From the IMG/VR virus record IMGVR_UViG_3300013232_000154: 64,000 bases of DNA; one strand, given 5' to 3'. The position numbers were made by a program, and so were the translations under genes. Below the pieces are notes generated by a model. The model saw only the letters and a program-made list of their open reading frames with translations, did not search any database and was not told the DNA's origin. Of the stretch, positions 12,068 to 32,856 are shown one piece after another. The DNA is from an uncultured virus (IMG/VR IMGVR_UViG_3300013232_000154) (lineage: Duplodnaviria > Heunggongvirae > Uroviricota > Caudoviricetes). The stretch's first letter is position 1. The number at the start of each line of letters is the position of its first letter.

Positions 12068-12070
12068 TTT

Positions 12071-18421: not shown

Positions 18422-18487
18422 CCCAATAGCAGAGGCGCATGGCTCAGAACCATGTTGTTGTGGGTGCGATTCCCACCCGCGCTACCA
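18412..18487 (+). tRNA. tRNA-Leu(CAG)
   Basis: cloverleaf, ACCA. Confidence 0.85.
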
Positions 18488-18501
18488 GTAAGGAGTTACG
18501 A

Positions 18502-19339: not shown

Positions 19340-19406
19340 TGTAGCGGATTCTGCACGGCTGTCTCCGAAGCAGCAAGTGGAGGTTCAACTCCTCCTGAGG
19401 ACGCCA
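19330..19406 (+). tRNA. tRNA-Arg(CCG)
   Basis: cloverleaf, GCCA. Confidence 0.85.
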
Positions 19407-19414
19407 GTTTTCAT

Positions 19415-19486
19415 GCCCCAGTGACGCGGTCGTCAGTCCTCCTTGGTAAGGAGGTCGCGCAGGCTCAACTCCTGCCTGGGGCTCCA
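19415..19486 (+). tRNA. tRNA-Thr(GGT)
   Basis: cloverleaf, short D arm. Confidence 0.8.
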
Positions 19487-19490
19487 GGAT

Positions 19491-19567
19491 GGCCCAGTAG
19501 CCCAATTAGCAGAGGCGCTAGTTTCAAGAACTAGAGGTTGTGGGTGCAAGTCCCACCTGGGCTACCA
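19491..19567 (+). tRNA. tRNA-Leu(CAA)
   Basis: cloverleaf, ACCA. Confidence 0.85.
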
Positions 19568-19599
19568 AATCAGCACGATTTTCCTTGACTTCGGCTCAC

Positions 19600-19675
19600 G
19601 CCCCATTAGTGTAGCGGAACAGCATTGCTCGGTCCTAACGAGCAGGAGAAGGTTCGACTCCTTCATGGGGTGCCA
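19600..19675 (+). tRNA. tRNA-Arg(CCT)
   Basis: cloverleaf, GCCA. Confidence 0.85.
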
Positions 19676-19678
19676 AAC

Positions 19679-20095
19679 ATGACCAAGTACGTGGTTGGTT
19701 TCTACTACGTGACGCATCCGAACACCGTTCTTCTCATTCGCAAGAAGCGCCCAGACTGGCAGAAGGGCCTTTTGAACGGAGTCGGAGGACACGTAGAGAA
19801 CGACGAGTCAGACGTAGCGGCCATGCGAAGGGAATTCGAGGAAGAAGCTGGGATAGACGTAATCGGGTGGCGGTCTTTCCTTGAAATCAAGCGTGATCCA
19901 GGGTTCCACATCACCTTTTTCTATTTCAAAGGTGAGCGCGGGGAGATGAACAACATCCATGCCCGTACGGACGAGCAGCTTGAATGGCATGCCATGAACA
20001 GGCTCCCAGACGACATCATTCCGAATTTGGCTTGGATCATACCTCTTTCTTTGGAGCGGGAGATTGAAGGCCCGCTTATAATCAATTACAAGTAA
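19679..20095 (+). CDS. NUDIX hydrolase
   Basis: GGHVENDESDVAAMRREFEEEAG Nudix box. Confidence 0.9.
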   Translation: MTKYVVGFYYVTHPNTVLLIRKKRPDWQKGLLNGVGGHVENDESDVAAMRREFEEEAGIDVIGWRSFLEIKRDPGFHITFFYFKGERGEMNNIHARTDEQLEWHAMNRLPDDIIPNLAWIIPLSLEREIEGPLIINYK

Positions 20096-20103
20096 GGAGA
20101 TTT

Positions 20104-20177
20104 GCGGGTATAGCACAATGGTAGTGCGCGAGATTTCCAATCTCGTTACGAGGGTTCGATTCCCTCTACCCGCTCCA
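20104..20177 (+). tRNA. tRNA-Gly(TCC)
   Basis: cloverleaf, TCCA. Confidence 0.9.
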
Positions 20178-20190
20178 TTTAGGAGGATAC

Positions 20191-20267
20191 GCGTCCATAG
20201 TGTCAATAGCCGAGCATGAGACCCTTCCAAGGTCTAGGGGAGAGCGCAAGTCTCTCTGGACGCTCCA
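20191..20267 (+). tRNA. tRNA-Gly(TCC)
   Basis: cloverleaf, TCCA. Confidence 0.8.
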
Positions 20268-20272
20268 AAATC

Positions 20273-20632
20273 ATGAAAGTCATCGTAGCTGGTTCCCGTG
20301 GCATTCTAGACTACTCCATCGTGGAGAAGGCCATCAAGGAGTCTGGTTTCGATGTCACTGAAGTCGTATCGGGAGGAGCTCGCGGAGTCGATCAGCTTGG
20401 CGAAAGATGGGCTCGCGAGCATGATGTCGCCATACGCCAGTTCCTCCCGGACTGGACCACTCACGGCAAGAGCGCTGGGTTCATCAGGAACGATCTGATG
20501 GTCAAGCATGCTCAAGGCCTGATCTGCATTTGGGACGGCTCGAGTCGCGGAACCAAGCATACGCTTGCACAAGCGCTCAAGAAAGGGATTCCCGTACATC
20601 TCGTACGGACTGACGACGCGGGTATGGTGTAG
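20273..20632 (+). CDS. SLOG/YspA-like (DUF2493) protein
   Basis: VIVAGSR, VSGGARGVD, GKSAGFIRN, WDGSSRGT. Confidence 0.85.
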   Translation: MKVIVAGSRGILDYSIVEKAIKESGFDVTEVVSGGARGVDQLGERWAREHDVAIRQFLPDWTTHGKSAGFIRNDLMVKHAQGLICIWDGSSRGTKHTLAQALKKGIPVHLVRTDDAGMV

Positions 20633-20691
20633 TGGCAACACGCAACCTTCCCAAGGTTGAGATGCGGGTCCGATTCCCGCTTCCCGCTCCA
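20618..20691 (+). tRNA. tRNA-Gly(CCC)
   Basis: cloverleaf, TCCA. Confidence 0.85.
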
Positions 20692-20715
20692 TTCAGAGAA
20701 TTAGGGGCTTGATCC

Positions 20716-21420
20716 ATGAGGCCTAGCTACGTCAGCAAGAAGGGCAAGTTGGTCGAACTGAACATATCGTTACATGCAAAATGTAGGTTTGTGAGTCGAT
20801 GGCGCAAGGTCTTCGTTGGAGAGAGGCCTCCAGATGACGTTGAGGCCGAGATTTGCAGGCTATTCGAAACCGCCTCAAGAGTCAGCAGCTTCACAAAAAG
20901 AGACAAAATGCGGATGAAGCGGTACGGAAGTGATACCATGTTCTTCAGGACGGAAGACTTCACGTTCGTAGTACAAGACTCGACCATATTGACGATTGAG
21001 GTCAGCAAGGAAGGCATGAGGTACCTCAACAAGAAGAGCGCCCAGCCGTTACCCGCGTACATTCCATCGACTACTAAAAGCTACGATTACAACTCGCGAT
21101 ACACCGCTCCAGATTCTCGTCTGAAGATCGTGGCATCGGCCATCACCGACGAAGGAAAGATGAAGTTTGTTAACCTTGGAAGGTATGGTTCCACCGTTGA
21201 ACGTCTTAACACGGACGCTGACTTTGAGAAGGAAATGATGGATAGGTTTGCGTTCAAGCATCCGACTTGGCGTATGATTGGTCTATACGTGAACGTGTCG
21301 AAAAGAAACCATGGCAGTGATTTGCAAGTCGTGAATACGGCGCTGTTCCAGGCGGCTCCTGGGCCTCGTCTGCAAAGCGAGGACAAAGAGGGTTCGACTC
21401 CCTCCAGCGCCTCCAATTAG
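20716..21420 (+). CDS. hypothetical protein (3' end runs through tRNA-Cys)
   Basis: long ORF; ISLHAKCRF start. Confidence 0.6.
   Translation: MRPSYVSKKGKLVELNISLHAKCRFVSRWRKVFVGERPPDDVEAEICRLFETASRVSSFTKRDKMRMKRYGSDTMFFRTEDFTFVVQDSTILTIEVSKEGMRYLNKKSAQPLPAYIPSTTKSYDYNSRYTAPDSRLKIVASAITDEGKMKFVNLGRYGSTVERLNTDADFEKEMMDRFAFKHPTWRMIGLYVNVSKRNHGSDLQVVNTALFQAAPGPRLQSEDKEGSTPSSASN
21339..21415 (+). tRNA. tRNA-Cys(GCA)
   Basis: GGCGCTG/CAGCGCC, U73. Confidence 0.8.
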
Positions 21421-21429
21421 GAGGATTCC

Positions 21430-21948
21430 ATGAGCGAACGTTGCTTGCCAGAAGATACCGCTAAGAAGGCCATGTGTCTTCTAATGCTCCACGATCAAGA
21501 AAAACTACCTCGTGATCTCGATCGGATAGAGCGAAGGATATGTTGGCATGCCAAGAACATCGCCGAAGAGGCAGAGCATGCCGACATCATCAAAGCGGTT
21601 GATGAATTGTACGCAACCCTTGAGGTCGAAAAGCTGATGGGTCCGCTCCCATGCTACGAGGAGCGATGCTTCATCTGCGACAAAAAGCTAGAGTCTTCCG
21701 TGGGAGAGTTCTTCAAGGAAGACCCGAAAGAGTTGCTTGGCCTTCCTCCTTCTGGAGGCATAGCGTTCGAGACTTGCGGGAACTATGGAAGCACGGTTTT
21801 CGACTCCATGTCTGGGGCCAGCTTGCAGATCGTGATCTGCGACGAATGCGTTAAGGCTCGCCAGGAAAAGGTCGTGTTTTTTAGGACGCACAGAGTGAAC
21901 GAAAGCTATAATTGGAAGAGATGGGAACCCACCAAGGACTATGATTGA
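21430..21948 (+). CDS. hypothetical protein
   Basis: GGAGG SD; GNYGSTVFD..ICDEC. Confidence 0.7.
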   Translation: MSERCLPEDTAKKAMCLLMLHDQEKLPRDLDRIERRICWHAKNIAEEAEHADIIKAVDELYATLEVEKLMGPLPCYEERCFICDKKLESSVGEFFKEDPKELLGLPPSGGIAFETCGNYGSTVFDSMSGASLQIVICDECVKARQEKVVFFRTHRVNESYNWKRWEPTKDYD

Positions 21949-22037
21949 GGAGAGTGAAGCGGACAAGCGCACCGCCATCGGCTCGAACCCGATTGGGACC
22001 CATGAGGTCTGAGGGGCAGGCCCTCCGCTCTCCGCCA
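21949..22037 (+). tRNA. tRNA-Ser(CGA)
   Basis: long variable arm, GCCA. Confidence 0.8.
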
Positions 22038-22218
22038 TAAGGGACAAGAACAATGGAATGCTACGTTCTGATCGACAAGAAGTCCGTCAAGGACTTAAGC
22101 AAAGCCATCGGATTCCAGATGCCTGGAAACCCCAAGTTCATCTGGCCCGAATATGAGGGAGCAATGAAGTTCTGGCGATCGAACCCAGAGGTTCAAGCTA
22201 ACTTCAACGTGGTCAAAG

Positions 22219-22848
22219 TCACTCTTCAGTTTTCCGAGTGATGAATTTCAACAGTTCTTCTCTTCCAGTGATGACGGCAAAAGGCATCGTCTTTCCACCA
22301 TCTTGCGTCACGCCAGCAACGCCTAAGCCACAAAGCTTTCCCTCCTTCGTGTAGACTGGGCTACCGCTGCTGCCGTGGTTGAATTTCTCTATCTTTGCGA
22401 CCCATCTTCCCAATGGTATCTCGGAAAGGATCACGCCTTCTTGTAGCGTCATCTTCTTGTCGGCATAGAAATTCGGGTTCATGACCACTTGAGTTTGCTG
22501 ATTGTTCTTCTTGTCAAGTTCAACGGTTTCTGGAGGAGAAAGCTTCGGCTCAAGCAAGCATAGGTCATGTTCGATGTCGATTTTGACTACCTTGCATCGG
22601 ATCCATCCGACTGGGAAGTCGACCATGATCTGATCCGCATCCTTCCCCTTCTCGTTCTTGACGATGTGGGCGGCGGTCAAAACGACCTTCTTTCCATCGA
22701 CTTTGATAGGAACGCACAAGCCATGCCCAGTGACAACCTTGTCTCCGTCCTCGAAATCAGAGCGTACGAGATAGGCTGGGTAGTCTTGGGCCAGAGCGGA
22801 CAAGGCCAGGGCGAACAAGGTCGCGATACATAGTGGGATGGATTTCAT
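22219..22848 (-). CDS. secreted trypsin-like serine protease
   Basis: Signal peptide; LTAAH, DLCLL, GSSGSP catalytic triad. Confidence 0.85.
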   Translation of the reverse strand: MKSIPLCIATLFALALSALAQDYPAYLVRSDFEDGDKVVTGHGLCVPIKVDGKKVVLTAAHIVKNEKGKDADQIMVDFPVGWIRCKVVKIDIEHDLCLLEPKLSPPETVELDKKNNQQTQVVMNPNFYADKKMTLQEGVILSEIPLGRWVAKIEKFNHGSSGSPVYTKEGKLCGLGVAGVTQDGGKTMPFAVITGREELLKFITRKTEE

Positions 22849-22898
22849 AGTTCACCTCCCATTCGTAAGTTCATCGGATGCATGGGCTAAGCCTTCAC

Positions 22899-22991
22899 GG
22901 AGCGTCAATTGGACAAGCGAGCCAACACTCGGTGCTAACGAGTTGGTACCTCGAAGAGGGGTATGAGGGGCGGGACCTCGGCGCTCCGCCA
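22899..22991 (+). tRNA. tRNA-Ser(GCT)
   Basis: long variable arm, GCCA. Confidence 0.8.
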
Positions 22992-23051
22992 TTTTTAACG
23001 AGGAACAACTCGTCCATTGTTTAAGCACAACAATAGGACGAGGGTACGACG

Positions 23052-23891
23052 ATGAAGCGTTGTCGTTCTTTCGGATGCGAGTTCGAGTTTTCTACTCCAT
23101 GGGAGGATGCCCTTCCAGTAGTCCAAAAGGTAATTCCAAAGCGCAATCTCAAGGTAGAGCGAGACTACGTACAGACCGAGAAAAACAAGACGTGGTGGCA
23201 TCTGAAGGTCGACGGCTCAACTGACATAGAACTAACCACCCCAATCTCCACGGTCTCAGACTTGCCAAACATTTGCCGCGTCATCAAGAAACTCTCCAAA
23301 AGCCTCAAGGTCACCGTGAACGATGGGTTCCATGTCCATGTCTCGGTCAAGGGCGTCGACGTTAGGCTCTTGATGATCTACTGGGCCAGATGCGAGAATG
23401 CCATATTCTCATTGGTCAACAAGCAGAGAAACGTAAACGACTCGTGCAGAAAGATATCAAACGCATTCAAAGACGGGATGGATAATCTGATGAAGGTCGC
23501 AGACGACCATCACTCGGCGCTCTCATGCTGCTACTATCACGATCGCAAGACGGTCGAGTTCAGGGTCGCAGAAGGTACGAGGGACTGGGAGTTCATTGAC
23601 GCGTGGGTACATTTCTGCTTGGCTTTCGTGGAATACTGCAAGAAGGCGGATCCGATAGAAGTCCTCACGGACAAGACCTTCAAGATCAGTGTGAGCAAGA
23701 TGTTTGATGACATCAAACTGCCAAAGAAGTACGTGAACGAGTTGATCGGAAGAAGCAAGAGGATCAATAATGCCCCACTGGCTTGGGAGCCAAAGTCGCC
23801 TTGTAAGCGAGTTCGCCAGGTTCGATCCCTGGGTGGGGCTCCAGCACACGCAAGCTATCATTATAGGCCTTATTACCTCCAAGGCCTTTGA
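23052..23891 (+). CDS. putative amidoligase (COOH-NH2 ligase type)
   Basis: FGCEFEF, DGS..ELTTP, GFHVHVS, TVEFR. Confidence 0.8.
   Translation: MKRCRSFGCEFEFSTPWEDALPVVQKVIPKRNLKVERDYVQTEKNKTWWHLKVDGSTDIELTTPISTVSDLPNICRVIKKLSKSLKVTVNDGFHVHVSVKGVDVRLLMIYWARCENAIFSLVNKQRNVNDSCRKISNAFKDGMDNLMKVADDHHSALSCCYYHDRKTVEFRVAEGTRDWEFIDAWVHFCLAFVEYCKKADPIEVLTDKTFKISVSKMFDDIKLPKKYVNELIGRSKRINNAPLAWEPKSPCKRVRQVRSLGGAPAHASYHYRPYYLQGL
23772..23843 (+). tRNA. tRNA-Thr(TGT)
   Basis: GCCCCAC/GTGGGGC-TCCA. Confidence 0.75.
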
Positions 23892-23901
23892 TATCATTAA
23901 T

Positions 23902-23991
23902 GGAGAACGAAGCGGACAAGCGAGCCGCCACTCGTTGGAAGCGAGTTGGGCCTCGAAAGGGGCTGAGAGGCAGGATCTCCGTTCTCCGCCA
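23902..23991 (+). tRNA. tRNA-Ser(GGA)
   Basis: long variable arm, GCCA. Confidence 0.8.
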
Positions 23992-23995
23992 TCAT

Positions 23996-24082
23996 GGACG
24001 ATGAACCAGCGAAGCGCTGGAACTGCCTTGAAAGCAGATTGGGCTCAAGGGGCCTGGGGAGCATGTCCTCCGTCGTCCGCCA
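23996..24082 (+). tRNA. tRNA-Ser(TGA)
   Basis: long variable arm, GCCA. Confidence 0.75.
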
Positions 24083-24112
24083 TCACCGTATGATCATGAC
24101 AGGAGAAATGAA

Positions 24113-24703
24113 GTGAAAAAGGAGGCAAAGCCCGTGACGCAAGCATTTGACGATCTGCAAAAAAAGCTTAAGAAGAAAAGGATCGCACGTGAAAGGTTAA
24201 AGACGAGGAAGCCGACCCCGATGACCATCATCGCTCCAAAGGGATGCATCATCAAGGAGCTACAGCCACTCGTCCAACTGTATGTAGATAAGGTTCTGGC
24301 CGAAGACCAAGACTGGGATTATGCATTCTTTCTCAGAATGATGATTTTCAAACTTTCTCGCATGAGGAAGTGTTTAAGAACTGGATGGAGCGCGGACCGA
24401 AAGAAGACCGCCGACCAGATTCTTAAAGTCGAAGAAGCTCTAAAGAGACTCGATAAGGACGACTACAGCATTGATAGGATCGACGTCATACATAAAAAGT
24501 ACGACGTCAAGTACGGGACCAAGAAAGAAAACGGTCAATGCCTGTTTGCCACACTCCCCCGGAAGAAGAATGGGACCTTCGACGAGAAGGCCTATGACGC
24601 AGAGATTAAACAAGCCTTCAAAGATGCCGATGCCGAAAGAAACAACGATCTCTCAATCGCTTTCGACGGGATGAAGAAGAACGTGTTGGGATGGTGGGAC
24701 TAA
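24113..24703 (+). CDS. hypothetical phage protein
   Basis: DQDWDY..GWWD pattern. Confidence 0.7.
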   Translation: MKKEAKPVTQAFDDLQKKLKKKRIARERLKTRKPTPMTIIAPKGCIIKELQPLVQLYVDKVLAEDQDWDYAFFLRMMIFKLSRMRKCLRTGWSADRKKTADQILKVEEALKRLDKDDYSIDRIDVIHKKYDVKYGTKKENGQCLFATLPRKKNGTFDEKAYDAEIKQAFKDADAERNNDLSIAFDGMKKNVLGWWD

Positions 24704-24733
24704 CGGTATCATTGATGGACTCGGAGATTGGAC

Positions 24734-25144
24734 ATGTCACCAGAAAAGACTGAAAAACTGATCAAGAACTTCCCGACCCTTTATGGACTATCAAAGGCTC
24801 CTCCAACCGAGGCCTCGATGTGTTTCGGGTTCGAATGCGACGATGGATGGATAGAGTTGATCTGGATACTTAGCGAGAAGATAGAAAGATGGAACGACAA
24901 GAATCCCAAGACGCCCATACGGGCGGTTCAAGTCAAAGAAAAGTTTGGTGGTCTCAGGTTCTACGTCGATCATGAGCCAGATGAAATCCACGAGGCCATA
25001 CAAAAGGCGGAGAAACTGAGCTACAAGACGTGTGAAATGACTGGCGTACCAGGCCGACTGTGCCGAAGGGGATCTTGGTATAAGACTCTTTGCGCGAAGG
25101 AAGCCAAGAAGCTTAGTTTCGTTCCAGTATCGGAGGCAGAATGA
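24734..25144 (+). CDS. conserved phage protein
   Basis: CDDGW, QVKEKFGGLRFY, TCE..G. Confidence 0.75.
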   Translation: MSPEKTEKLIKNFPTLYGLSKAPPTEASMCFGFECDDGWIELIWILSEKIERWNDKNPKTPIRAVQVKEKFGGLRFYVDHEPDEIHEAIQKAEKLSYKTCEMTGVPGRLCRRGSWYKTLCAKEAKKLSFVPVSEAE

Positions 25145-25377
25145 CCAAGGAAGACCTTCTCGATGCGGCCACGGACAACCAAGAGGCCGTCACGGAGAGC
25201 AACATCTGTGGATGTTTCGTATGCGGAAAGGTGTACCCAAGCGTAGACGTGGACGAGTTCATTGGGGCTACTGCGGTATGCCCAGTCTGCAAGAAGCAAG
25301 GAGTTCTTCCTTCTTCCACCGAGCTTCCAGTTCATGACGAGTCGTTCCTGAACGAGATCAAGAACAAATTCTTTTAG
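25141..25377 (+). CDS. Zn-binding small protein
   Basis: CGCFVC..TAVCPVC. Confidence 0.7.
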   Translation: MTKEDLLDAATDNQEAVTESNICGCFVCGKVYPSVDVDEFIGATAVCPVCKKQGVLPSSTELPVHDESFLNEIKNKFF

Positions 25378-25387
25378 GAGATCAAGG

Positions 25388-25660
25388 ATGAAATTTCGTG
25401 AAGGGTTCGTGAGCAATTCTAGCAGCGCCAGCTTCATCATCAGCAAGCCGAAATTGAGCGCTCTACAACTCATAGCGCTCCATAACCACATCCAAATCGG
25501 CAAGGAACTCGGTATTGAATACTGTGATCCAGAAGACGCTTGGGACATCACAGAAGACGACGACACGATTACGTTGAGTACCTTCATGAATAATTTCGAC
25601 ATGGAAGAGTTCATAAGGAAGATCGAGGCGACACACGCAATCCTTGAGCGTGGAGACTAG
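25388..25660 (+). CDS. phage protein, MKxRxGFVSNSSS family
   Basis: N-terminal motif shared with 37979 and 38434. Confidence 0.75.
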   Translation: MKFREGFVSNSSSASFIISKPKLSALQLIALHNHIQIGKELGIEYCDPEDAWDITEDDDTITLSTFMNNFDMEEFIRKIEATHAILERGD

Positions 25661-25668
25661 TTTTAGAT

Positions 25669-25745
25669 GGCGCGGTAGCCCAATTGGCAGCGGCGCTTGG
25701 CTTAGGACCAAGAGGTTGCGGGTTCGAATCCCGCCCGCGCTACCA
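25669..25745 (+). tRNA. tRNA-Leu(TAG)
   Basis: cloverleaf, ACCA. Confidence 0.9.
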
Positions 25746-25807
25746 TCTTTCATGCGCTGTTCCGTGGATTGTTGAAGGATTGTGCCAAAAAAGATAGAAC
25801 TTTTAGT

Positions 25808-25834
25808 TGACACGGGACGTATGTGGTGTAGGAT
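25808..25834 (+). promoter_or_regulatory. promoter of tRNA array 2
   Basis: TTGACA...TAGGAT. Confidence 0.65.
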
Positions 25835-25882
25835 AGTAAGTGAATGGCGGGCGTTCCGCCATCACATGAGAAGGAAAAGGTC

Positions 25883-25969
25883 ATGTTGAACTTCTTCGCG
25901 CAACCAACGAGCCCAGAGACGCAGCCCTGGTATATTTACCAGGAACCGCGTAATTTTGGCCTCGGGTAG
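25883..25969 (+). CDS. attenuator leader peptide of tRNA array 2 (28 aa)
   Basis: MLNFFAQPTSPETQPWYIYQEPRNFGLG*; AAGGAAAAGG SD. Confidence 0.75.
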   Translation: MLNFFAQPTSPETQPWYIYQEPRNFGLG

Positions 25970-26020
25970 CGCGATCAGGAACCGCAAAAACCCCGAGGCC
26001 GAAAGCCTCGGGGTTTTTTT
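25958..26020 (+). terminator. terminator/antiterminator switch
   Basis: AAAAACCCCGAGGC-CGAAA-GCCTCGGGGTTTTTTT; competing GGCCTCGGG at 25958-25966. Confidence 0.85.
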
Positions 26021-26074
26021 GTTGGTGTTGGAAGTCTGGTCGGGAAGCCCAAAGTCGGGACGAACGAACAGACC

Positions 26075-26093
26075 GCTCTCTGAAAACCGAATA
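26075..26093 (+). promoter_or_regulatory. rrn-type boxA-like element
   Basis: GCTCTCTGAAAACCGAATA. Confidence 0.5.
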
Positions 26094-26108
26094 GGCGACG
26101 TAAATTGT

Positions 26109-26203
26109 GGCTCCTTCGTTCAATCGCGGAGGACCCCCAGATGGTACTGCGTCATAGACGTGGACGCTCTGGGGAAACGTGGGTTAGAACCCCACAGGAG
26201 CCA
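26109..26203 (+). ncRNA. tRNA-like RNA with expanded anticodon loop
   Basis: GGCTCCT/AGGAGCC; CCCAGA/TCTGGG stem enclosing 26 nt with an extra hairpin. Confidence 0.55.
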
Positions 26204-26211
26204 TCCTAAGT

Positions 26212-26289
26212 GTCCCCATGGTGTAGTTGGTCTAACACACGTGGTTCTCAGCCACGAGATCGAGGGTTCGACTCCCTCTGGGGATACCA
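26212..26289 (+). tRNA. tRNA-Glu(CTC)
   Basis: cloverleaf, ACCA. Confidence 0.9.
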
Positions 26290-26291
26290 GA

Positions 26292-26351
26292 ATGCCGAAT
26301 GCCGAAGGGACTACATCGGAAAAATGACGTCTCTTCAAACTTTGTCGGCAT
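26292..26351 (+). ncRNA. Y RNA-like RNA 3 (minimal, stem only)
   Basis: ATGCCGAATGC..GGGACTACAT..GTCTCT..TTGTCGGCAT. Confidence 0.65.
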
Positions 26352-26358
26352 GCTTTTT

Positions 26359-26443
26359 GGGTCTGCTAGGGCTGGGATGAAGCCCACGCGCCTGTAAGCG
26401 CGGCCTATATGGCTAAGCGGTTTGAATCCGCTCAGATCCACCA
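26359..26443 (+). tRNA. tRNA-Tyr(GTA), atypical loop
   Basis: variable arm, ACCA. Confidence 0.65.
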
Positions 26444-26447
26444 GTTT

Positions 26448-26532
26448 GGGTCCACTAGGTCTGGGGGAAGCCAGGAAGTCTGTAAAACTTCTGCCTTACG
26501 GATAAGAGGTTCGAGTCCTCATGGACCCACCA
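26448..26532 (+). tRNA. tRNA-Tyr(GTA)
   Basis: variable arm, ACCA. Confidence 0.8.
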
Positions 26533-26534
26533 AT

Positions 26535-26620
26535 GGTGCGGTGGCAGAGTAGAAATGCACTTGGCTGTAAACCAAGCGCCCGAAAGGGCATCGGGGGTGC
26601 AATTCCCTCCCGTACCACCA
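26535..26620 (+). tRNA. tRNA-Tyr(GTA)
   Basis: variable arm, ACCA. Confidence 0.9.
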
Positions 26621-26622
26621 TT

Positions 26623-26702
26623 AGCCGAATGCCGAGGGGATTACATCTTTCTCATACAAAGAGCCGCCCCGCAAGGGGCTAATCTCCTCACTCTTGTCGG
26701 CT
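26623..26702 (+). ncRNA. Y RNA-like RNA 4
   Basis: AGCCGAATGC...TTGTCGGCT; internal CTTT-CTCATAC-AAAG hairpin. Confidence 0.65.
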
Positions 26703-26712
26703 GAACTTTTCT

Positions 26713-27087
26713 GGCTCTGGAGTGGCAGAGGATCGGTCTCCCATCCAGCGGGAGAAAAGGAACCTTGTCTCTTAGATCTCACCGAGGGGCCTGTCATCCT
26801 TCCCGTCGGGCAAATGCCTGAAGAACGATCCGTGGGTTCCACACCGCTAAAAACGATGGAAAAGCGGTCTCGCCTTCGATGGTGAGCAGTTCAGACCAAG
26901 TACGTCCCGCGTTCCAGCCGTGGGTTGGAGGGATAGCCTTGGGAGAGGAGAGCATAGGTTTCGTGTAACCGGGCCACGCCTTCATGGGTAACCATGCGGG
27001 ACAGCGAATGCCGTGGCAGGGGAGCGCGTTTCCTAAAAGGCCTCTAGCTGGACTGTTACGCGGGTTCGAGTCCCGTCAGAGCCACCA
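26713..27087 (+). ncRNA. 375-nt tmRNA-shaped RNA with tRNA-like termini
   Basis: GGCTCTG/CAGAGCC-A-CCA, T arm GCGGG-TTCGAGT-CCCGT, long helix TCCAGC/GCTGGA. Confidence 0.65.
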
Positions 27088-27097
27088 ATTTTCAAAT

Positions 27098-27175
27098 GTC
27101 CCCATGGTGTAGTTGGTCTAACACATCGCGTTTTCATCGCGAAGATCGCGGGTTCGAATCCCGCTGGGGATACCA
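27098..27175 (+). tRNA. tRNA-Glu(TTC)
   Basis: cloverleaf, ACCA. Confidence 0.9.
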
Positions 27176-27306
27176 TGACCGAATGCAGAAGGGATTACAT
27201 CTCATGTGAAGAGAGAGATCTGGGTTCGAATCCCAGCAGCCCCACATCGACGGGGCTGTAGCTTAATGGCAGAGCGCTAAACTAGTCTCTTCAATTTTGT
27301 CGGTCA
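27176..27306 (+). ncRNA. Y RNA-like RNA 5 with permuted tRNA (GTG loop)
   Basis: TGACCGAATGC...TTGTCGGTCA enclosing anticodon, T, acceptor and D arms. Confidence 0.75.
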
Positions 27307-27311
27307 ATTAC

Positions 27312-27383
27312 AGGCTCGAGGACAAGGGTCCAACTAGGCCTCCAAAACCTAGGAAGGGGGAGCGTTACCCTCCGAGCCTGCCA
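27312..27383 (+). tRNA. tRNA-Trp(CCA)
   Basis: A1:U72, G73. Confidence 0.75.
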
Positions 27384-27386
27384 TAC

Positions 27387-27461
27387 GTTCCCGTGGTCTA
27401 GCGGCAGGACGAGACCCCTTCAAGGTCTAAGGGATGGGTTCAATTCCCTCTGGGAACACCA
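27387..27461 (+). tRNA. tRNA-Glu(TTC)
   Basis: cloverleaf, loop CC TTC AA. Confidence 0.8.
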
Positions 27462-27530
27462 AATTTTGGTATCTATGGCCTCAAAAGGAATGTAAATATT
27501 GATGGTTGAATCTTTTGTGAGGAGATCATC

Positions 27531-28223
27531 ATGGGTACACAGTTCGGCAAAGATGACGTACAAAACATATTAGACCAAGTAGTTAATCGCATAACATACA
27601 CGACTAAGAATGGTGGAACCTTACAGACCGAATTCAAAGCATGTGTCCCCGTGAGACTGGTAATTGTAAAAGGGGACAATCTCTCGCGCCCCTACTTTAG
27701 GGTCTTTGGTACGATGAACGTAAAATACTATCCAGATCTAGGACAAGTAAAGTTGGACAAAATGTACATTAAATTTTTCTATGATCCCTTTAGTTTCAAA
27801 CCATCTGAGCGTATGAGGCAATATATCTTTACGCTGATCGACCATGAGTTAGATCACGCGAATTACTTTACTTCCTTGTCCAAAGAAGAACTGGAAAGGC
27901 AACACGAGGAACAACGTCCTTTTATGGAGTCGTTTGATAAATCCATTGGAATGGCAGATTCACAGGCTTTAGAAAGAGCCTTGCTTAGTGAAATGGAGAA
28001 AAGGGCACACGTATATAGTTTAGACGCGCAAGCGAAAAGAGAGGGTAGGGGATTCGCAGAAGTATTGGAAGAGTTCCTTAAAATGTCTCTAGGTCAAGAG
28101 GCTGGACTGTCACCAATGATGAAAAGAGTTAAGGATGCATATTTGGCCTATCATGCTGAAAAGTTCCCCAGTTCAAAAGTTGCGAACTGGATCAGATCAG
28201 TCCTAAAGTTTTGCGCAAGTTAG
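27531..28223 (+). CDS. putative Zn-metallopeptidase-like protein
   Basis: HELDH..E motif; C-terminal VANWIRSVLKFC. Confidence 0.65.
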   Translation: MGTQFGKDDVQNILDQVVNRITYTTKNGGTLQTEFKACVPVRLVIVKGDNLSRPYFRVFGTMNVKYYPDLGQVKLDKMYIKFFYDPFSFKPSERMRQYIFTLIDHELDHANYFTSLSKEELERQHEEQRPFMESFDKSIGMADSQALERALLSEMEKRAHVYSLDAQAKREGRGFAEVLEEFLKMSLGQEAGLSPMMKRVKDAYLAYHAEKFPSSKVANWIRSVLKFCAS

Positions 28224-28255
28224 TAAATTTCGGATGGGTTCAATTCCCCATTTTT

Positions 28256-28341
28256 GGTAGCGTAGCCTAATGGTCGAGGCACTTGCCTGATACGCAAGGG
28301 GCGAAAGCCTTATGCAGGTTCGATTCCTGCCGCTACCACCA
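28256..28341 (+). tRNA. tRNA-Ile(GAT), long variable arm
   Basis: cloverleaf, ACCA. Confidence 0.8.
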
Positions 28342-28355
28342 TTAAAATTTCATAA

Positions 28356-28431
28356 TGGCCCATGGTAGAGTGGTTCTGCACGTCTGGCCGATAACCAGAA
28401 GAGCCAGGTTCGATTCCTGGTGGGCCAACCA
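28356..28431 (+). tRNA. tRNA-Ile(GAT)
   Basis: cloverleaf, ACCA. Confidence 0.8.
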
Positions 28432-28435
28432 ATTT

Positions 28436-28508
28436 CGCGGGTTAGTTCAACGCCAGAACGGCTCCCATGGGGGAGCAGACGGTGGTTTAACTCCATCACC
28501 CGCGACCA
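28436..28508 (+). tRNA. tRNA-Pro-like (TGG), shortened anticodon loop
   Basis: C1:G72, A73; GCTCC-CATGGG-GGAGC. Confidence 0.5.
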
Positions 28509-28514
28509 GTTTAT

Positions 28515-28588
28515 TGCCTCGTAGTGTAATGGCAGCTCGCATGGCTCTGAACCATGAGGCGGAGGTTCGATTCCTCCCGAGGCAACCA
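28515..28588 (+). tRNA. tRNA-Gln(CTG)
   Basis: U1:A72. Confidence 0.85.
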
Positions 28589-28600
28589 GTATGATGTACT

Positions 28601-29236
28601 ATGAAGATATACATCACCCGACATGGCCACCGCGAAGATGACCCACATAACCCATCTGGAAAGCACATCCCAGAGGGAAGGCCGCTCGACCCAAACATAT
28701 CTTCGATCGGCATGGCCCAGGCCACTGCCTTGGGCAAGAGACTTAAGGCCGAGGCCCAGATCAAGACAATCTATGCTTCTCCTTTTCTCAGGACGTCCCA
28801 CACGGCCCATCTGATCGCGAAGGAGCTTGGGCTGAAGGTCAAGCTGGAATGGGGGATCACGGAGTCGTTCTATCCGCAGTGGTTCAGCGCGTGGCCAGGG
28901 ACTACGGACAGACAGAAGCTTGCCGCGATGTTCGACACGATTGACTTGTCGTATGTCCCGCTTGGTATCTTGCCGACTTGTCCTGAAGAGAATCAATGGC
29001 GCACGAATGATCGACTCTTGGAGGTCATGAAGAGGCTGGTCATAGACGAGGACACGCTGATCGTCACGCACGCATTGCCCATGCTACTGCTTCAAGCTGG
29101 AATGGCTGGTTGGGGCGAAGGGGAATGGAACGTTTACTGCTGCTCTCTGAGTTGCATAGAAAAGGTAGGGGATAAGTGGGTGACCAGGTTGAAGTGTGAT
29201 GGAGAACATCTAAAAAGCATCGGCTTGTATCTGTGA
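28601..29236 (+). CDS. histidine phosphatase family protein
   Basis: RHG, IYASPFLRT..TA, LIVTH. Confidence 0.9.
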   Translation: MKIYITRHGHREDDPHNPSGKHIPEGRPLDPNISSIGMAQATALGKRLKAEAQIKTIYASPFLRTSHTAHLIAKELGLKVKLEWGITESFYPQWFSAWPGTTDRQKLAAMFDTIDLSYVPLGILPTCPEENQWRTNDRLLEVMKRLVIDEDTLIVTHALPMLLLQAGMAGWGEGEWNVYCCSLSCIEKVGDKWVTRLKCDGEHLKSIGLYL

Positions 29237-29272
29237 GGCGCGTATGATCTCTAATGGAAAGGAGACGTACAC

Positions 29273-29413
29273 ATGGCAAGGAAGATCAAAAGCGTTAAGA
29301 AGAAGGACAGTTGTCTGCTCGTTCCCATCGAGGAGGCTCATTTGCTGATGAACCTATGTGACAAAGGAATCATTAGCAAGGATGAACTTCGCAAGAAAAT
29401 CATCAGTTTTTAA
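29273..29413 (+). CDS. small hypothetical protein
   Basis: AAGGAG SD, 46 aa. Confidence 0.5.
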   Translation: MARKIKSVKKKDSCLLVPIEEAHLLMNLCDKGIISKDELRKKIISF

Positions 29414-29420
29414 TTGAAAT

Positions 29421-29547
29421 TGGCCGAATGCAGGTTAGGGACTACAGCCTGAAGAGCTGGAGGAGCCGTTCGACTCGGCAGCGCCCACTTGACGGGCGTT
29501 TAGTGTAACGGTTGCACGACAAACGTCTCTGCCATTTTTGTCGGCCA
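29421..29547 (+). ncRNA. Y RNA-like RNA 6 with permuted tRNA (GAA loop)
   Basis: TGGCCGAATGC...TTGTCGGCCA enclosing anticodon, T, acceptor and D arms. Confidence 0.75.
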
Positions 29548-29553
29548 TGTTTT

Positions 29554-29630
29554 CGGAGCGTAGTTCAGCTTGGGAGAACGCTTGGTTTGGGTCCAAGAGG
29601 TCGCAGGTTCAAATCCTGTCGCTCCGACCA
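29554..29630 (+). tRNA. tRNA-Pro(TGG)
   Basis: cloverleaf, ACCA. Confidence 0.9.
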
Positions 29631-29649
29631 TTTTGAGAGGAGGTGAGCC

Positions 29650-30111
29650 ATGATCTTCAAACGATTTCATGCCGATGTTCATCCCAATCCGTTCATTGTC
29701 TTCAAAGAAGATGGTGATACCCAGTCGTTTGTATGTACGCGCTGGATCTTTGAATTTCCGACGCTTAACGGGGCTATGGAAGTATGGAACCGTAAGTTCA
29801 TGAAAGAAATCAAAGAAACAGACCCTGAATTTATCCGTTCTTTGGCTGTTTTTGGGACGGCGATCATGGCTACGCTTACAGAGCCGATCCATGAATGCGC
29901 AAAGGCGCTGGGCTTTGTTTCTAGCAACAGAGAATTCAAAGATCTGGTTTCGGCCAAGGCCATCTTTTGCAATGGCATTCCTGTAAGACTTGGTCAAGCC
30001 GTGTTCGACTTCAATCCCATCGACATCACGCCTCTAAAGGCACTGATAATGCGCAAAGGAAAACAAGAAAGAGTCATTCTGATTGCTCCAAACCATTCGA
30101 CGGAAGTTTAG
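29650..30111 (+). CDS. protein with C-terminal S4-like RNA-binding domain
   Basis: LGFVSSNREFKDLVSAKAIFCNG..RKGK resembles the TyrRS S4 domain. Confidence 0.55.
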   Translation: MIFKRFHADVHPNPFIVFKEDGDTQSFVCTRWIFEFPTLNGAMEVWNRKFMKEIKETDPEFIRSLAVFGTAIMATLTEPIHECAKALGFVSSNREFKDLVSAKAIFCNGIPVRLGQAVFDFNPIDITPLKALIMRKGKQERVILIAPNHSTEV

Positions 30112-30116
30112 TTTTT

Positions 30117-30194
30117 CGGGCTGTAGCGTAGTTTGGTCATCGCGCCTGACTGGGGGTCAGGAGATCGTGGGTTCAAATCCCGCCAGCCCGACCA
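30117..30194 (+). tRNA. tRNA-Pro(GGG)
   Basis: cloverleaf, ACCA. Confidence 0.9.
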
Positions 30195-30209
30195 TTTTAG
30201 GAGTCTGCG

Positions 30210-30476
30210 ATGAAACGCTACGAAAACGGTGAGCTTGTAACCAAGGAACGCATGGAAGACGAGGAATGGTACTACAATGGATATCAGACACTCATGCATA
30301 TCTCCATGTACCCTGACATTGGTGAGGACTGCGATGAAATTGCCAGAGTGTTCTGGGAAGAAAACCCTGACAGTAATCTCACAAAAGAACAGGTTCTAAG
30401 ATGGGCCTGTGTCCACGCAGCGATATCGGCGCGATTGCCTGAAGAGTTAAAGAAAGCATTAAAAGAAGAGTCATGA
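30210..30476 (+). CDS. hypothetical protein
   Basis: AGGAG SD. Confidence 0.6.
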   Translation: MKRYENGELVTKERMEDEEWYYNGYQTLMHISMYPDIGEDCDEIARVFWEENPDSNLTKEQVLRWACVHAAISARLPEELKKALKEES

Positions 30477-30554
30477 TGGGGAGCGGTCCAGCTTGGAGTG
30501 GACGCCTGCTTCGGGAGCAGGAGAGCGCGGGTTCAAGTCCCGCCTCCCCAACCA
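30477..30554 (+). tRNA. tRNA-Pro(CGG)
   Basis: cloverleaf, ACCA. Confidence 0.85.
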
Positions 30555-30568
30555 TTTCCACAACACAT

Positions 30569-30644
30569 CGGAGACGAGGGAGCTAGTGACCCCGCTCGTT
30601 TTGGAAGCGAGTATAGCGCAGTGCGATCCTGCGGTCTCCGACCA
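30569..30644 (+). tRNA. tRNA-Pro(TGG)
   Basis: CGGAGAC/GTCTCCG-ACCA. Confidence 0.75.
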
Positions 30645-30663
30645 TTTCAAGAAAGGAGAAGCC

Positions 30664-30810
30664 ATGGCGACGAAGTACAAGAACTACCTTGAGTTCCTAG
30701 AGACCGCCGTGGCCTCCGAGCACCTCAAGAAGAACGACCCGAAGAAGTGGGAAGAGATGAAGGCAAAGCTCAAGAAGGAGCGTTTCCTTGTAAAGCTAAA
30801 GGTCAAATAG
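30664..30810 (+). CDS. small hypothetical protein
   Basis: AAGGAG SD. Confidence 0.6.
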   Translation: MATKYKNYLEFLETAVASEHLKKNDPKKWEEMKAKLKKERFLVKLKVK

Positions 30811-30885
30811 GGGCGCGGAGGGTGGGTACCTCGGCTGATCTCCAAAGTCAGCGCTTAGCGGGTTCGATTCCTGCCGCCCCTGCCA
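30809..30885 (+). tRNA. tRNA-Trp(CCA)
   Basis: AGGGGCG/CGCCCCT-GCCA. Confidence 0.85.
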
Positions 30886-30901
30886 TTAAAAGGATGATCC
30901 A

Positions 30902-31294
30902 ATGATTAAGCAAGTGATCGTGATCCGCAAGGATCTCGGGATGCGCCGCGGCAAAGAAATCGCCCAAGGCGCTCATGCTTCCATGATGTTCCTTTCAAAG
31001 CTTGTACAAGAGCATCTTAGGAAGTCGATTATTGTTTCCTCAGAGATCTGCTTGAGTGATGCTCAGGCAGAATGGATAAATGGGCGCTTCACCAAGATCT
31101 GTCTTCAGGTTCCTGACGAGGCATCCTTGTTGTCCATTGCCGAAGAAGCACGAAAGGCTGGTCTGGATTGCCATGTAGTGACCGATGCTGGTGTCACCGA
31201 GTTCAATGGTGTTCCGACCAATACTTGTCTGGCAATCGGTCCAGATGAGGCGGAGAAGATTGATGCAGTAACTGGAAAGTTGTCGTTGTACTAA
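30902..31294 (+). CDS. pth2: peptidyl-tRNA hydrolase Pth2
   Basis: KQVIVIRKDLGMRRGKEIAQGAHA, DAGVTEF, TCLAIGP. Confidence 0.9.
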   Translation: MIKQVIVIRKDLGMRRGKEIAQGAHASMMFLSKLVQEHLRKSIIVSSEICLSDAQAEWINGRFTKICLQVPDEASLLSIAEEARKAGLDCHVVTDAGVTEFNGVPTNTCLAIGPDEAEKIDAVTGKLSLY

Positions 31295-31296
31295 AT

Positions 31297-31370
31297 GCCA
31301 GCGTGTGGCGTGGGCCACGTCATCACTCGTAATGATGAACTAGCGGGTTCGACTCCCGCCGCTGGCTCCA
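31297..31370 (+). tRNA. tRNA-Thr(CGT)
   Basis: cloverleaf, TCCA. Confidence 0.85.
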
Positions 31371-31380
31371 TATAATCAGC

Positions 31381-31779
31381 ATGGGGACTATCATGCCGTA
31401 CATGTCCAGCGGTTTCTTGCGATACCACCCTCCATACAAGGTCATCGTGGAGGCCGATCAGGAACTGTCGAGATATTATCGGTCGTTGATACCTAAATCT
31501 GTTGACATCAAGGTCCCGATGTATGCGCCACACATCACCGTAGTCAGGAAAGAAGTCCCGCCTAAGATGGAAGTCTTCGGCAAGCATGAGGGAGAGTTGG
31601 TATTCTTCGAGTACGACACGGAGATACATCATGATGAGACCTATTACTGGCTCAATGCCTACTCCAAGCGGCTTGAGGAGATTAGAGAAGAACTTGGCTT
31701 GCCAGTAATGAGCGCATACACAAGACCTCCAGACGGTAGAAGATGTTTCCACATCACCATCGGGAACTTGAAGAGTTAG
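31381..31779 (+). CDS. 2H phosphoesterase family protein
   Basis: two HxT motifs (PHITV, FHITI). Confidence 0.75.
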   Translation: MGTIMPYMSSGFLRYHPPYKVIVEADQELSRYYRSLIPKSVDIKVPMYAPHITVVRKEVPPKMEVFGKHEGELVFFEYDTEIHHDETYYWLNAYSKRLEEIREELGLPVMSAYTRPPDGRRCFHITIGNLKS

Positions 31780-31781
31780 AG

Positions 31782-31855
31782 TGCCTCGTAGCTCAATGGC
31801 AGAGCGGTGGGCTTTGAACCCAACGACGGAGTTTCGATTACTCCCGAGGCAACCA
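31782..31855 (+). tRNA. tRNA-Gln(TTG)
   Basis: U1:A72, ACCA. Confidence 0.85.
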
Positions 31856-31875
31856 TTACTCCAGGTGGTGTAACC

Positions 31876-32856
31876 ATCCACGTCGCCTATTCCGGTGGGT
31901 CATACGCGGAGACCATGAGCAAAGGAGTCTCGACGTAGGCGTCCTTGCAATTCCCCTCGCCAAATACTCTCAGCATCATGGATCGTATTCCAGTCCCCAG
32001 CTTAACCAATAGTTTGCGATAGGTCGAGTTCTTAGCGAATTCCTCGTCAAGGAACGCTCTCTTATATCTGAACTCTCTGACCGTACGCTGGTTCAGCCCC
32101 TTTGCCTCAAGATCATCCAGAGAAAGATCAAACATCCGAATCAGCATATCCAAGCGATGCGTGTATGCCAGGTACTTGAGCGGATCTTCGGAATTGAACA
32201 TCACTACGTACCCGACGAACTGAGCCTCGCATTCTCGTGCATAGCCAACAAGATGAGCCTTCTCATGCGCTATGTCTTCTGGGAACAGTTTCGAAGTTAC
32301 CACGATCTCCTGGAAGAACGGACACATAACCCCACCGATCCTACGACGCAGAAGGTATTTAGAGAACAGCGAGATCTTGGTTCTTTTGGCATGGGGAACC
32401 TGATACCCATCAACCCTTTTGGAAAACTCGTCAAGCGCGGAGTTGATGCGCTCGTTTTGTTCTTCGAACGACAATTCTCTTGAAGGTGACAGCTCGTTCA
32501 AACGCTTGACCACGTAATCTACTTCGGCGGAATGATTTAGCGTCTTTGGAATGACCAGAGCCATCTTGGTTTTTAGAGGCGCACGGAGGAAGTTCAGCCC
32601 GTATGTCAGCATCACGAGGCCGAGAACTAGGGCAGTTACATACAAGTCAGAGGTCCCATAGGATGGGTTCCATATGGCCGCAAGAACAATCAACTCATAG
32701 ATGAACAACGAACCTCCCAAGAGCGGGTCTGAAAATGCAAACCTAGTCGAGTCTGAGACTCCAGCGGTCAGTCGGGCCAATAGGCAATATATCCATCGGT
32801 GATACCAATCCCCAATCTTCATGCCGAAATCATACTGATCCACGTCGCCTATTCCG
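31876..32856. repeat. 19-bp direct repeats flanking a gene
   Basis: ATCCACGTCGCCTATTCCG at 31876-31894 and 32838-32856. Confidence 0.85.
31887..32822 (-). CDS. DUF3810-like membrane Zn-metalloprotein
   Basis: TM helices; PFFQE, HEKAHLVGYARECEAQF. Confidence 0.7.
   Translation of the reverse strand: MKIGDWYHRWIYCLLARLTAGVSDSTRFAFSDPLLGGSLFIYELIVLAAIWNPSYGTSDLYVTALVLGLVMLTYGLNFLRAPLKTKMALVIPKTLNHSAEVDYVVKRLNELSPSRELSFEEQNERINSALDEFSKRVDGYQVPHAKRTKISLFSKYLLRRRIGGVMCPFFQEIVVTSKLFPEDIAHEKAHLVGYARECEAQFVGYVVMFNSEDPLKYLAYTHRLDMLIRMFDLSLDDLEAKGLNQRTVREFRYKRAFLDEEFAKNSTYRKLLVKLGTGIRSMMLRVFGEGNCKDAYVETPLLMVSAYDPPE

Follow-up and report, generated by a model that had tools for sequence, protein, structure and literature searches.

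The window analyzed here, a 64-kb stretch of DNA from an uncultured virus (IMG/VR record IMGVR_UViG_3300013232_000154), looks like part of a large phage. It carries two arrays of transfer RNA (tRNA) genes, each preceded by a small leader unit. The unit ahead of the second array (leader unit 2) is probably a ribosome-stalling attenuator of the trp/his type that gates array 2 and senses the decoding capacity that this array supplies, and leader 1 would do likewise for array 1. We put the probability of this reading at about 0.7. It is adopted because of codon statistics with null cross-controls, mutually exclusive RNA pairings, a layout conserved in a relative, and the replicate provided by leader 1; on the same grounds the original prediction, which described leader 2 as a second codon-matched attenuator, is supported.

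Leader unit 2 (25782-26020) consists of a promoter, a 5' hairpin, a Shine-Dalgarno sequence, a short open reading frame (ORF), an antiterminator and a terminator, and lies directly upstream of array 2. The coordinates and sequences first reported for it were all correct on re-reading. Its features, and the array behind it, are listed below by window position (nt, nucleotides).

25782-25792, + strand: A-rich upstream motif GTGCCAAAAAA, resembling an UP element in its presumed role, common to both leader promoters
25807-25834, + strand: sigma-70-like promoter P2, TTGACA-16-TAGGAT, matching 10 of 12 consensus positions
25844-25862, + strand: 5'-proximal hairpin ATGGCGGGCGTTCCGCCAT near the predicted transcript start, a possible stabiliser or pause element
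25871-25875, + strand: Shine-Dalgarno-like AAGGA, 7 nt ahead of the ATG
25883-25969, + strand: leader ORF 2, 28 codons and TAG, presumably translated, encoding MLNFFAQPTSPETQPWYIYQEPRNFGLG
25896-25922, + strand: strand 1 (anti-antiterminator), pairing with 25948-25974
25901-25948, + strand: sensing core, codons 7-22, matching the codons read by array 2
25954-25966, + strand: strand 2 (5' strand of the antiterminator), TTTTGGCCTCGGG, ending at the stop codon
25986-26018, + strand, with a 7-T run to 26020: intrinsic terminator 2 (strands 3 and 4), 14 pairs
26212-31855, + strand: tRNA array 2, with Glu CTC, Tyr-like, Tyr (two), Glu TTC (two), Ile GAT (two), an odd-loop tRNA, Gln CTG, Pro TGG/GGG/CGG/TGG, Trp, Thr CGT and Gln TTG, and small ORFs between them

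The leader ORF has a ribosome-binding site and a start codon and follows closely behind the promoter, with 49 nt from P2 to the ATG. An in-frame ATG at 25844, inside the 5' hairpin, would give a 41-codon leader. It was rejected and the 28-codon ORF was taken as the conserved form because this ATG is absent from L002, a related locus described below. The sequence GGCCTCGGG occupies 25958-25966 and the TAG stop codon follows immediately. The window has GTGCCAAAAAA with a TTGAC 10-30 nt downstream of it at two sites (10065 and 25782), against 0.00 expected.

An intrinsic terminator stands between the ORF and array 2, 192 nt ahead of the first tRNA gene of the array called by ARAGORN, and any transcript entering array 2 must pass it. 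It has the longest stem among the + strand terminator-like sites of the window. The two longest-stem sites of this kind are 25986-26018 and 10323-10349, and each is located between a promoter-like site and a tRNA array. A terminator between a promoter and the array appears an odd placement unless it is regulated.

The codons of leader 2 were compared with the anticodons of the arrays under standard wobble rules. Fifteen of the 16 codons at positions 7-22 are readable by array-2 tRNAs, AGC being the one miss; this recount agrees with the number given in the original prediction. None of the remaining 12 codons is readable. All 11 anticodon types of array 2 are sampled (P = 6.5e-5 for random codons, and P = 0.006 given 15 in-set codons). 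Among 78,906 stop-free 16-codon windows in six frames, only one reaches 15 readable codons, and it is the leader-2 core. The core is the sole top-ranking window at lengths of 10, 12 and 16 codons, is tied at 8 and 20, and is not the top window at 24 and 28. The loss of rank at greater lengths fits a core flanked by unmatched codons. The regulatory codons therefore match the product of the genes they precede, as in known attenuators, with the product a tRNA rather than an amino acid.

The first leader unit has the same layout.

10065-10128, + strand: upstream motif and promoter P1, TTGACT-16-TAGAGT
10136-10154, + strand: 5' hairpin of leader 1, from folding
10178-10294, + strand: leader ORF 1, 38 codons, presumably translated, encoding MRTMAAHLAMHASLSAGTRAAALSHFGCLSLDTGDSGP
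10287-10356, + strand: antiterminator 10287-10299 with 10316-10328, containing the stop codon and overlapping terminator 10323-10349 and its T-run
10389-25745, + strand: tRNA array 1, with Phe, Gly (three), His, Ala (two, plus one), Asp (plus one), Leu (six), Ser, Met, Arg (two), Thr (two, GGT/TGT) and Cys, and ORFs between them

Array-1 tRNAs can read 33 of the 38 codons of leader 1, and 37 of its 38 residues belong to the amino-acid set of array 1; only one codon of the 38 is readable by array 2. Leader 1 samples 19 of the 21 array-1 anticodon types (P = 5e-6). Among 733 small ORFs it has the highest rank for the array-1 match, and of all 38-codon windows it scores best. When each leader is scored against the other array, P is 0.89 and about 1. 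These null cross-controls mean that general codon bias of the phage cannot explain the match between leader and array. The two units share the upstream motif and have reciprocal codon specificity, and the view of leader 2 as an internal replicate of the leader-1 layout is thereby borne out. The stop codon is at the end of the antiterminator strand in leader 2 and inside it in leader 1. Thr codons had been singled out as diagnostic of the partition. The contents agree with this, leader 1 having ACC, ACA and ACC and leader 2 having ACG twice; the decoding is less strict, as Thr-TGT of array 1 could also wobble-read ACG.

RNA folding is consistent with regulated termination. The leader-2 RNA has a folding z score of -6.5 and the leader-1 RNA one of -5.2, and none of 200 shuffled sequences folds as well. 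The alternative structures envisaged for leader 2 could be computed as three competing helices. Helix 1:2 (25896-25922 with 25948-25974; -41.3 kcal/mol) spans codons 5-14, helix 2:3 (25954-25966 with 25992-26004) has 13 pairs and -25.0 kcal/mol, and helix 3:4, which is terminator 2, has -24.2 kcal/mol. The antiterminator and the terminator share strand 3 (25992-25999) and are mutually exclusive, and a sequestering strand lies over the regulatory codons.

The effect of a stalled ribosome was modeled as an equilibrium fold, with the ribosome occupying the RNA up to 13 nt past the first base of the A site and no pairing across it. In this model the probability of the leader-2 terminator is at most 0.13 with codons 9-16 in the A site, and about 0.5 at codons 7, 8 and 17; it is 0.95 or higher in naked RNA and with the ribosome at codons 1-5 and 18-29. 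The predicted sensing window (codons 7-17) overlaps the matched run (codons 7-22) but is shorter. The six unmatched codons at the 3' end of leader 2 are those at which the stalled ribosome itself would cover strand 2. For leader 1 the same equilibrium model gives the base of the terminator a probability of 0.91-0.97 only with the ribosome at codon 35 to the stop; with the ribosome at codons 8-14 or 24-32 it does not exceed 0.08, and at the other positions it lies at 0.28-0.73. A terminator that forms only near the end of the ORF fits a leader with nearly all of its codons matched.

These features suggest the following mechanism. Host RNA polymerase would start at P2 and transcribe leader 2, and a ribosome would translate the 28-codon ORF. 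If codons 7-22 are read quickly, the ribosome would reach the stop codon and cover strand 2, strands 3 and 4 would pair, and transcription would end at 26020. A slowly read Gln, Pro, Thr (ACG), Glu, Trp, Tyr or Ile codon would stall the ribosome on or beyond strand 1 and leave strand 2 free for strand 3. With strands 2 and 3 paired the terminator could not form, and polymerase would continue into array 2. Where there is no translation, strands 1 and 2 would pair and the terminator would form. The downstream tRNAs read exactly the codons that would be sensed, which would make the unit a negative-feedback switch for demand-driven supply. The phage would top up the tRNA set when host tRNAs for these codons become scarce, for example by decay, by the action of host anticodon nucleases or under heavy phage demand, and the array's own tRNAs would then restore fast decoding and stop the supply. 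We infer every step of this scheme from the sequence, including that the leader is translated, that readthrough depends on stalling and that the array is co-transcribed. The proposal that the tRNA genes are split into separately gated modules holds insofar as a separate promoter, leader and terminator precede each array; the co-transcription of an array is the inferred part.

Relatives of leader unit 2 were found by scanning metagenomes once for the terminator sequence; an identical terminator was a condition of this search and does not count as evidence. The scan returned seven loci. Three are true relatives (L002, L003 and L005) and have identical leaders; L001, L004, L006 and L007 contain unrelated terminators and were dropped. 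Neighboring ORFs of the three relatives are 74% identical to those of the window (about 26% diverged), and 52% identical at third codon positions. The leader-2 core is identical to that of L002 at 46 of 48 bases (P = 9e-5) and at 14 of 16 third positions (P = 0.0035). The two changes, GAG to GAA and TAC to TAT, are synonymous and leave codons that array 2 can still read. The 12 flanking codons have five base changes in the relative, three of which alter the residue (N3T, F5T and F25C). The start, length and stop of the ORF are kept in all three relatives, and insertions and deletions occur solely outside it.

The surrounding elements are also retained in L002. The hexamers of P2 are identical while 5 of the 16 spacer bases differ, and the Shine-Dalgarno sequence is GAGGA at the matching distance. 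The 5' hairpin is kept by a compensatory change (TGGCGG/CCGCCA to GGGCGG/CCGCCC). Helix 1:2 differs from that of the window at one compensatory pair (U-A to C-G), at two pairs changed on one side with pairing preserved, and at one pair that is broken. The gene order in the relatives is Thr-TGT, Leu-TAA, Leu-TAG, leader, tRNA-like element, Glu-CTC, Tyr, Glu-TTC, Tyr, Ile, odd tRNA, Gln and Pro, with further genes on either side, and the order of array 2 is retained in L002 and L003. Contigs from all four of four metagenome runs (mud, lake, sediment) contain relatives that are 80-99% alike. These contigs span leader 2 with 1-6 differences per 220-330 bases, and their neighboring genes are about 20% different.

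Leaders of the same kind were found in the phiCbK family of Caulobacter and Brevundimonas phages. In phiCbK (JX100813) annotated terminators are located directly ahead of tRNA sub-arrays. The Phe-Val-Ile-Ile-Val-Gln-Gln block of this phage is preceded by a promoter-like site and a 32-codon ORF, MSKTYRQFVRQIQVVRNIRAGRSRMADEGFRD, and a homologous leader precedes the matching block in all five phages examined (phiCbK, Rogue, CcrSC, Colossus and Brevundimonas phage Gurke). These leaders are rich in Gln, Phe, Val, Arg, Ile and Asn, and the sub-array behind them is of the Val/Ile/Gln/Asn/Arg/Phe type. In the best 14-codon window, the number of codons readable by the phage's own block is 9, 9, 13, 12 and 10 in phiCbK, Rogue, CcrSC, Colossus and Gurke. 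Within the leader, the segment CGGGCGGGCC repeats the sequence of the terminator's 3' arm. The CcrSC version of this segment has changed in concert with the two arms of the terminator, and such three-way covariation is what an antiterminator would be expected to show.

The phiCbK-family leaders resemble those of the window in having a promoter, an ORF (31-32 codons) that uses the amino acids of the downstream tRNAs, a terminator-mimicking segment, a terminator and an array. They differ in that there is no sequence similarity and the antiterminator strand lies in the middle of the ORF, not at its stop. The phiCbK mRNA may be leaderless, and in phiCbK and Rogue the codons fit the block less closely (9 of 14). 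To judge from their sequences, these leaders support the class independently, and the occurrence of the design in cultured Caulobacter phages makes the idea directly testable at the bench. On balance we favor the wider view that unrelated large phages run their tRNA genes as self-regulating modules with "codon sampler" leaders, in which there is one codon per anticodon type and any tRNA in short supply would open the terminator.

Several observations weigh against the attenuator reading. In leader 2 the core codon AGC has no reader in array 2. The equilibrium model yields no antitermination for stalls at the matched codons 18-22. Strand 2 is still uncovered at stalls on codons 18-21, for which a kinetic argument would be needed, namely that helix 2:3 forms before strand 4 is made. 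Promoter-like sites are not more frequent in the window than in shuffled sequences (9 found, 12.9 expected). All 11 anticodon types of array 2 are sampled in the window as originally claimed, but the leader of the relative has lost GAG though its tRNA-Glu(CTC) is kept. Both synonymous changes in the core preserve pairing, so core conservation may in part reflect RNA structure, and selection on structure cannot be separated from selection on codons in this comparison, which involves one diverged lineage. The contrast between core and flanks is not significant (Fisher P = 0.13). As to leader 1, other loci equal it at windows shorter than 38 codons, and its codons CGT, TCC (twice), AGT and CCC have no strict reader in array 1. 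Its AGGAG is located 14 nt from the ATG. It matched no Rfam leader family, and no relative of it was recovered.

The first alternative is a translated attenuator that senses general translation status or amino-acid supply, through the levels of charged tRNAs for many amino acids, and not how abundant particular tRNA species are. In that case the match between leader and array would show only which codons matter to the phage. The classical attenuators (trp, his) sense charging and not the amount of tRNA, an uncharged tRNA and an absent one are inseparable from sequence, and leader 2 covers seven amino acids, all of which agree with this alternative. We nevertheless consider it unlikely. The match is at the level of the anticodon (CAA/CAG, CCA/CCC/CCG, GAA/GAG, and ACG only; 11 of 11 types), and the partition between the leaders follows the partition of the tRNA genes with null cross-controls, for which amino-acid supply provides no reason.

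The unit could also be an ordinary boundary between transcription units. The terminator would end array-1 transcription, the small ORF would be a chance occurrence or an independent gene, the codon match would be a coincidence, and array 2 would be expressed by readthrough or from another promoter. Since the stretch from array 1 to P2 has no terminator, array-1 transcripts would be stopped by terminator 2 too, and the unremarkable number of promoter-like sites noted above also suits a boundary. Coincidence is hard to reconcile with a core that is unique among the 78,906 windows, with a design that is present twice with reciprocal specificity, with a stop codon that in both units marks the end of the antiterminator strand, and with promoter hexamers and an ORF frame conserved at 26% flanking divergence. 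This explanation is very improbable.

Little credence is given to a third possibility, that the 28-residue peptide or the terminated RNA of about 180 nt is a trans-acting product. Trans activity of attenuator RNAs and of leader peptides has precedents in rnTrpL and peTrpL of Sinorhizobium, according to the available text of two reports (PMC6614838, PMC7298713), and the leader-2 core is conserved at the peptide level too. Selection on a protein would have left the opposite pattern to the one seen, in which the flanking residues vary freely (N3T, F5T and F25C) and synonymous core sites are conserved. A role in trans would in any case add to a switch in cis, not replace it. Direct sensing of tRNAs by codon-anticodon pairing with the leader RNA, in T-box fashion and with no ribosome, is suggested by the row of codons complementary to array-2 anticodons and is hardly credible, given that the 31 Rfam hits of the window at gathering thresholds are all tRNA with no T-box riboswitch (RF00230) among them, that permissive Rfam scans of the leader gave none either, that the Shine-Dalgarno sequence, ATG, conserved frame and stop on strand 2 point to translation, and that most of the codons are buried in helix 1:2.

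The attenuator that we prefer for leader 2 can be compared with known systems. Enterobacterial leaders include trpL, hisL, leuL and pheL and the multivalent thr leader (Thr, Ile) and ilvGMEDA leader (Ile, Leu, Val). Like leader 2, the enterobacterial attenuators have a promoter-proximal short ORF, regulatory codons in strand 1, the alternative pairings 1:2, 2:3 and 3:4, and a terminator before the structural genes, and the multivalent ones sense more than one amino acid. They control biosynthetic enzymes, whereas leader 2 would control tRNA genes. Enterobacterial leaders have runs of 1-3 amino acids, and leader 2 samples seven amino acids (11 anticodon types), most of which appear only once or twice. 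The match of leader 2 is at the codon-anticodon level and, unlike in the enterobacterial attenuators, the end product of the feedback would be the decoder itself. Full-length alignments of leader 2 with the Rfam families Thr_leader (RF00506) and His_leader (RF00514) score 35.6 bits, below the threshold of 55, and 25.3 bits, below the threshold of 49. Leader 2 is analogous to these families in its predicted architecture and is not a member of either.

The pheM leader of the E. coli pheST operon is an example of attenuation of a gene of the translation apparatus through the sensing of cognate codons. It resembles leader 2 as leader-peptide attenuation of a component of the decoding machinery. 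It differs in controlling a synthetase, in responding to one amino acid, and in belonging to a host gene, with no tRNA gene controlled. T-box riboswitches also have an antiterminator/terminator switch that reports the state of specific tRNAs and controls genes of the translation apparatus; they bind uncharged tRNA directly and involve neither a ribosome nor an ORF. Full-text searches of the literature outside subscription-only papers found no account of leader-peptide attenuation before tRNA genes, and the available text of the phiCbK genome paper (PMC3556154) mentions neither attenuation nor a leader. The type of mechanism proposed for leader 2 is classical; its new elements are the tRNA-gene target, a "sampler" design that works at the level of the anticodon, and a feedback carried by the decoder itself.

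To our knowledge, phage tRNA genes are usually viewed as a fixed supplement to codon usage or as a replacement for lost tRNAs, and their regulation is largely unknown. If the attenuator reading is true, phages gauge decoding capacity and provide tRNAs when these are needed, and the logic of attenuation extends from amino-acid synthesis to the decoders. On the wider view of self-regulating modules, it would be the first instance of tRNA genes under leader-peptide attenuation in which the tRNA serves as the signal of the feedback, and would constitute a viral sensor of host tRNA depletion by decay, anticodon-nuclease defense or codon-usage mismatch. The attenuator reading would also account for the splitting of tRNA arrays into blocks of fixed composition. 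The combination of promoter, sampler ORF, terminator and array provides a sequence signature for regulated tRNA modules in metagenomes.

ARAGORN identified 37 tRNA genes, all on the + strand and within 10389-31855, and none elsewhere in the window. The third array originally predicted, with tRNAs for Lys, Asn and Val, would therefore lie beyond the window. A run with relaxed scores and introns produced 179 mostly spurious calls and was set aside. Four further elements were found with Rfam. The first three, classified by eye, all fall within the amino-acid set of array 1.

11905-11975, array 1: Ala-GGC with C33
12528-12584, array 1: Phe-GAA-like fragment without an acceptor stem
12963-13037, array 1: second Asp-GTC
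26109-26203, + strand: tRNA-like element of 95 nt between terminator 2 and the first tRNA (RF00005, 35.3 bits, cut-off 29)

ARAGORN makes no call at 26109-26203, and the L002 copy of this element lacks a 23-nt internal insert. The element is perhaps a processing handle. It was considered as a Ser-GCT reader of the codon AGC and rejected, as was the tRNA at 26359-26443, which is Tyr-like with GTA in a 6-base anticodon loop (CTGTAA). The loop of the odd-loop tRNA at 28436-28508 is one base shorter than that of the L002 copy, which ARAGORN calls Arg-TCG.

Proteins encoded in the window include ThyX, a Dda-like helicase, an HD protein, and homologues of RNA ligase, polynucleotide kinase and phosphatase. 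The last group was assigned with PHROGs.

22-507: RNA ligase homologue
42542-42985: phosphatase homologue
44806-45285: polynucleotide kinase homologue

Together these three genes form what resembles a T4-like tRNA-repair set, which suggests that the phage meets host tRNA-cleaving defenses. Their presence fits a phage that faces loss of tRNAs.

No close relative of the window was found among 50,697 phage records. Against cultured phages, megablast of 25000-32000 and tblastn with an 892-residue window protein gave no match, and all matches of the window helicase were below 60% identity. A distant DNA search with 25660-27470 returned single tRNA-Leu genes in seven records and nothing else. Two protein queries and two leader patterns recovered no relative from IMG/VR, where two matches to the leader-1 antiterminator pattern were unrelated palindromes without tRNAs. 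The leader-2 core pattern had no match in genome contigs.

The inter-tRNA ORFs at 27531-28223, 28601-29236 and 30210-30476 are skipped in the contigs of the relatives, and the arrays thus act as landing pads for variable small genes. The ORF at 27531-28223 is missing from the metagenome relatives, and a search for proteins homologous to its product matched only the window's own protein. The motif GCCGARGGGAYTACATC occurs just 3' of three array-2 tRNA genes (26301-26317, 26631-26647 and 27185-27201; three matches, 0.46 expected). These repeats may be a trace of duplication or a processing or regulatory site. A direct repeat, CAGGAACCGC, is found at 25940-25949 (codons 20-23 of leader 2) and at 25976-25985, just before the A-run of the terminator, and is partly kept in L002.

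Additional features were seen in the phiCbK family. The annotated phiCbK protein gp083 (JX100813, 49540-49677; 45 residues) is rich in Ser, Leu, Pro and Lys, and its gene is followed by an annotated terminator and a Pro-Pro-Lys-Lys-Leu-Leu-Leu-(Ala)-Ser-Ser block. On its sequence it is a candidate second leader in phiCbK; its Thr codons have no matching tRNA. The phiCbK leader described above retains Arg and Asn codons, and the phage lacks the Arg and Asn tRNAs that are present in the block of CcrSC and Colossus. The position of Arg-TCT in Rogue is occupied by Gly-TCC in phiCbK.

A near copy of the upstream motif of the two leader promoters, TTGCCAAAAAA, precedes the promoter-like TTGACT-16-TACATT at 61042-61093 in the window, ahead of the ORF of 892 residues. 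The A-rich motif may be the mark of a promoter class.

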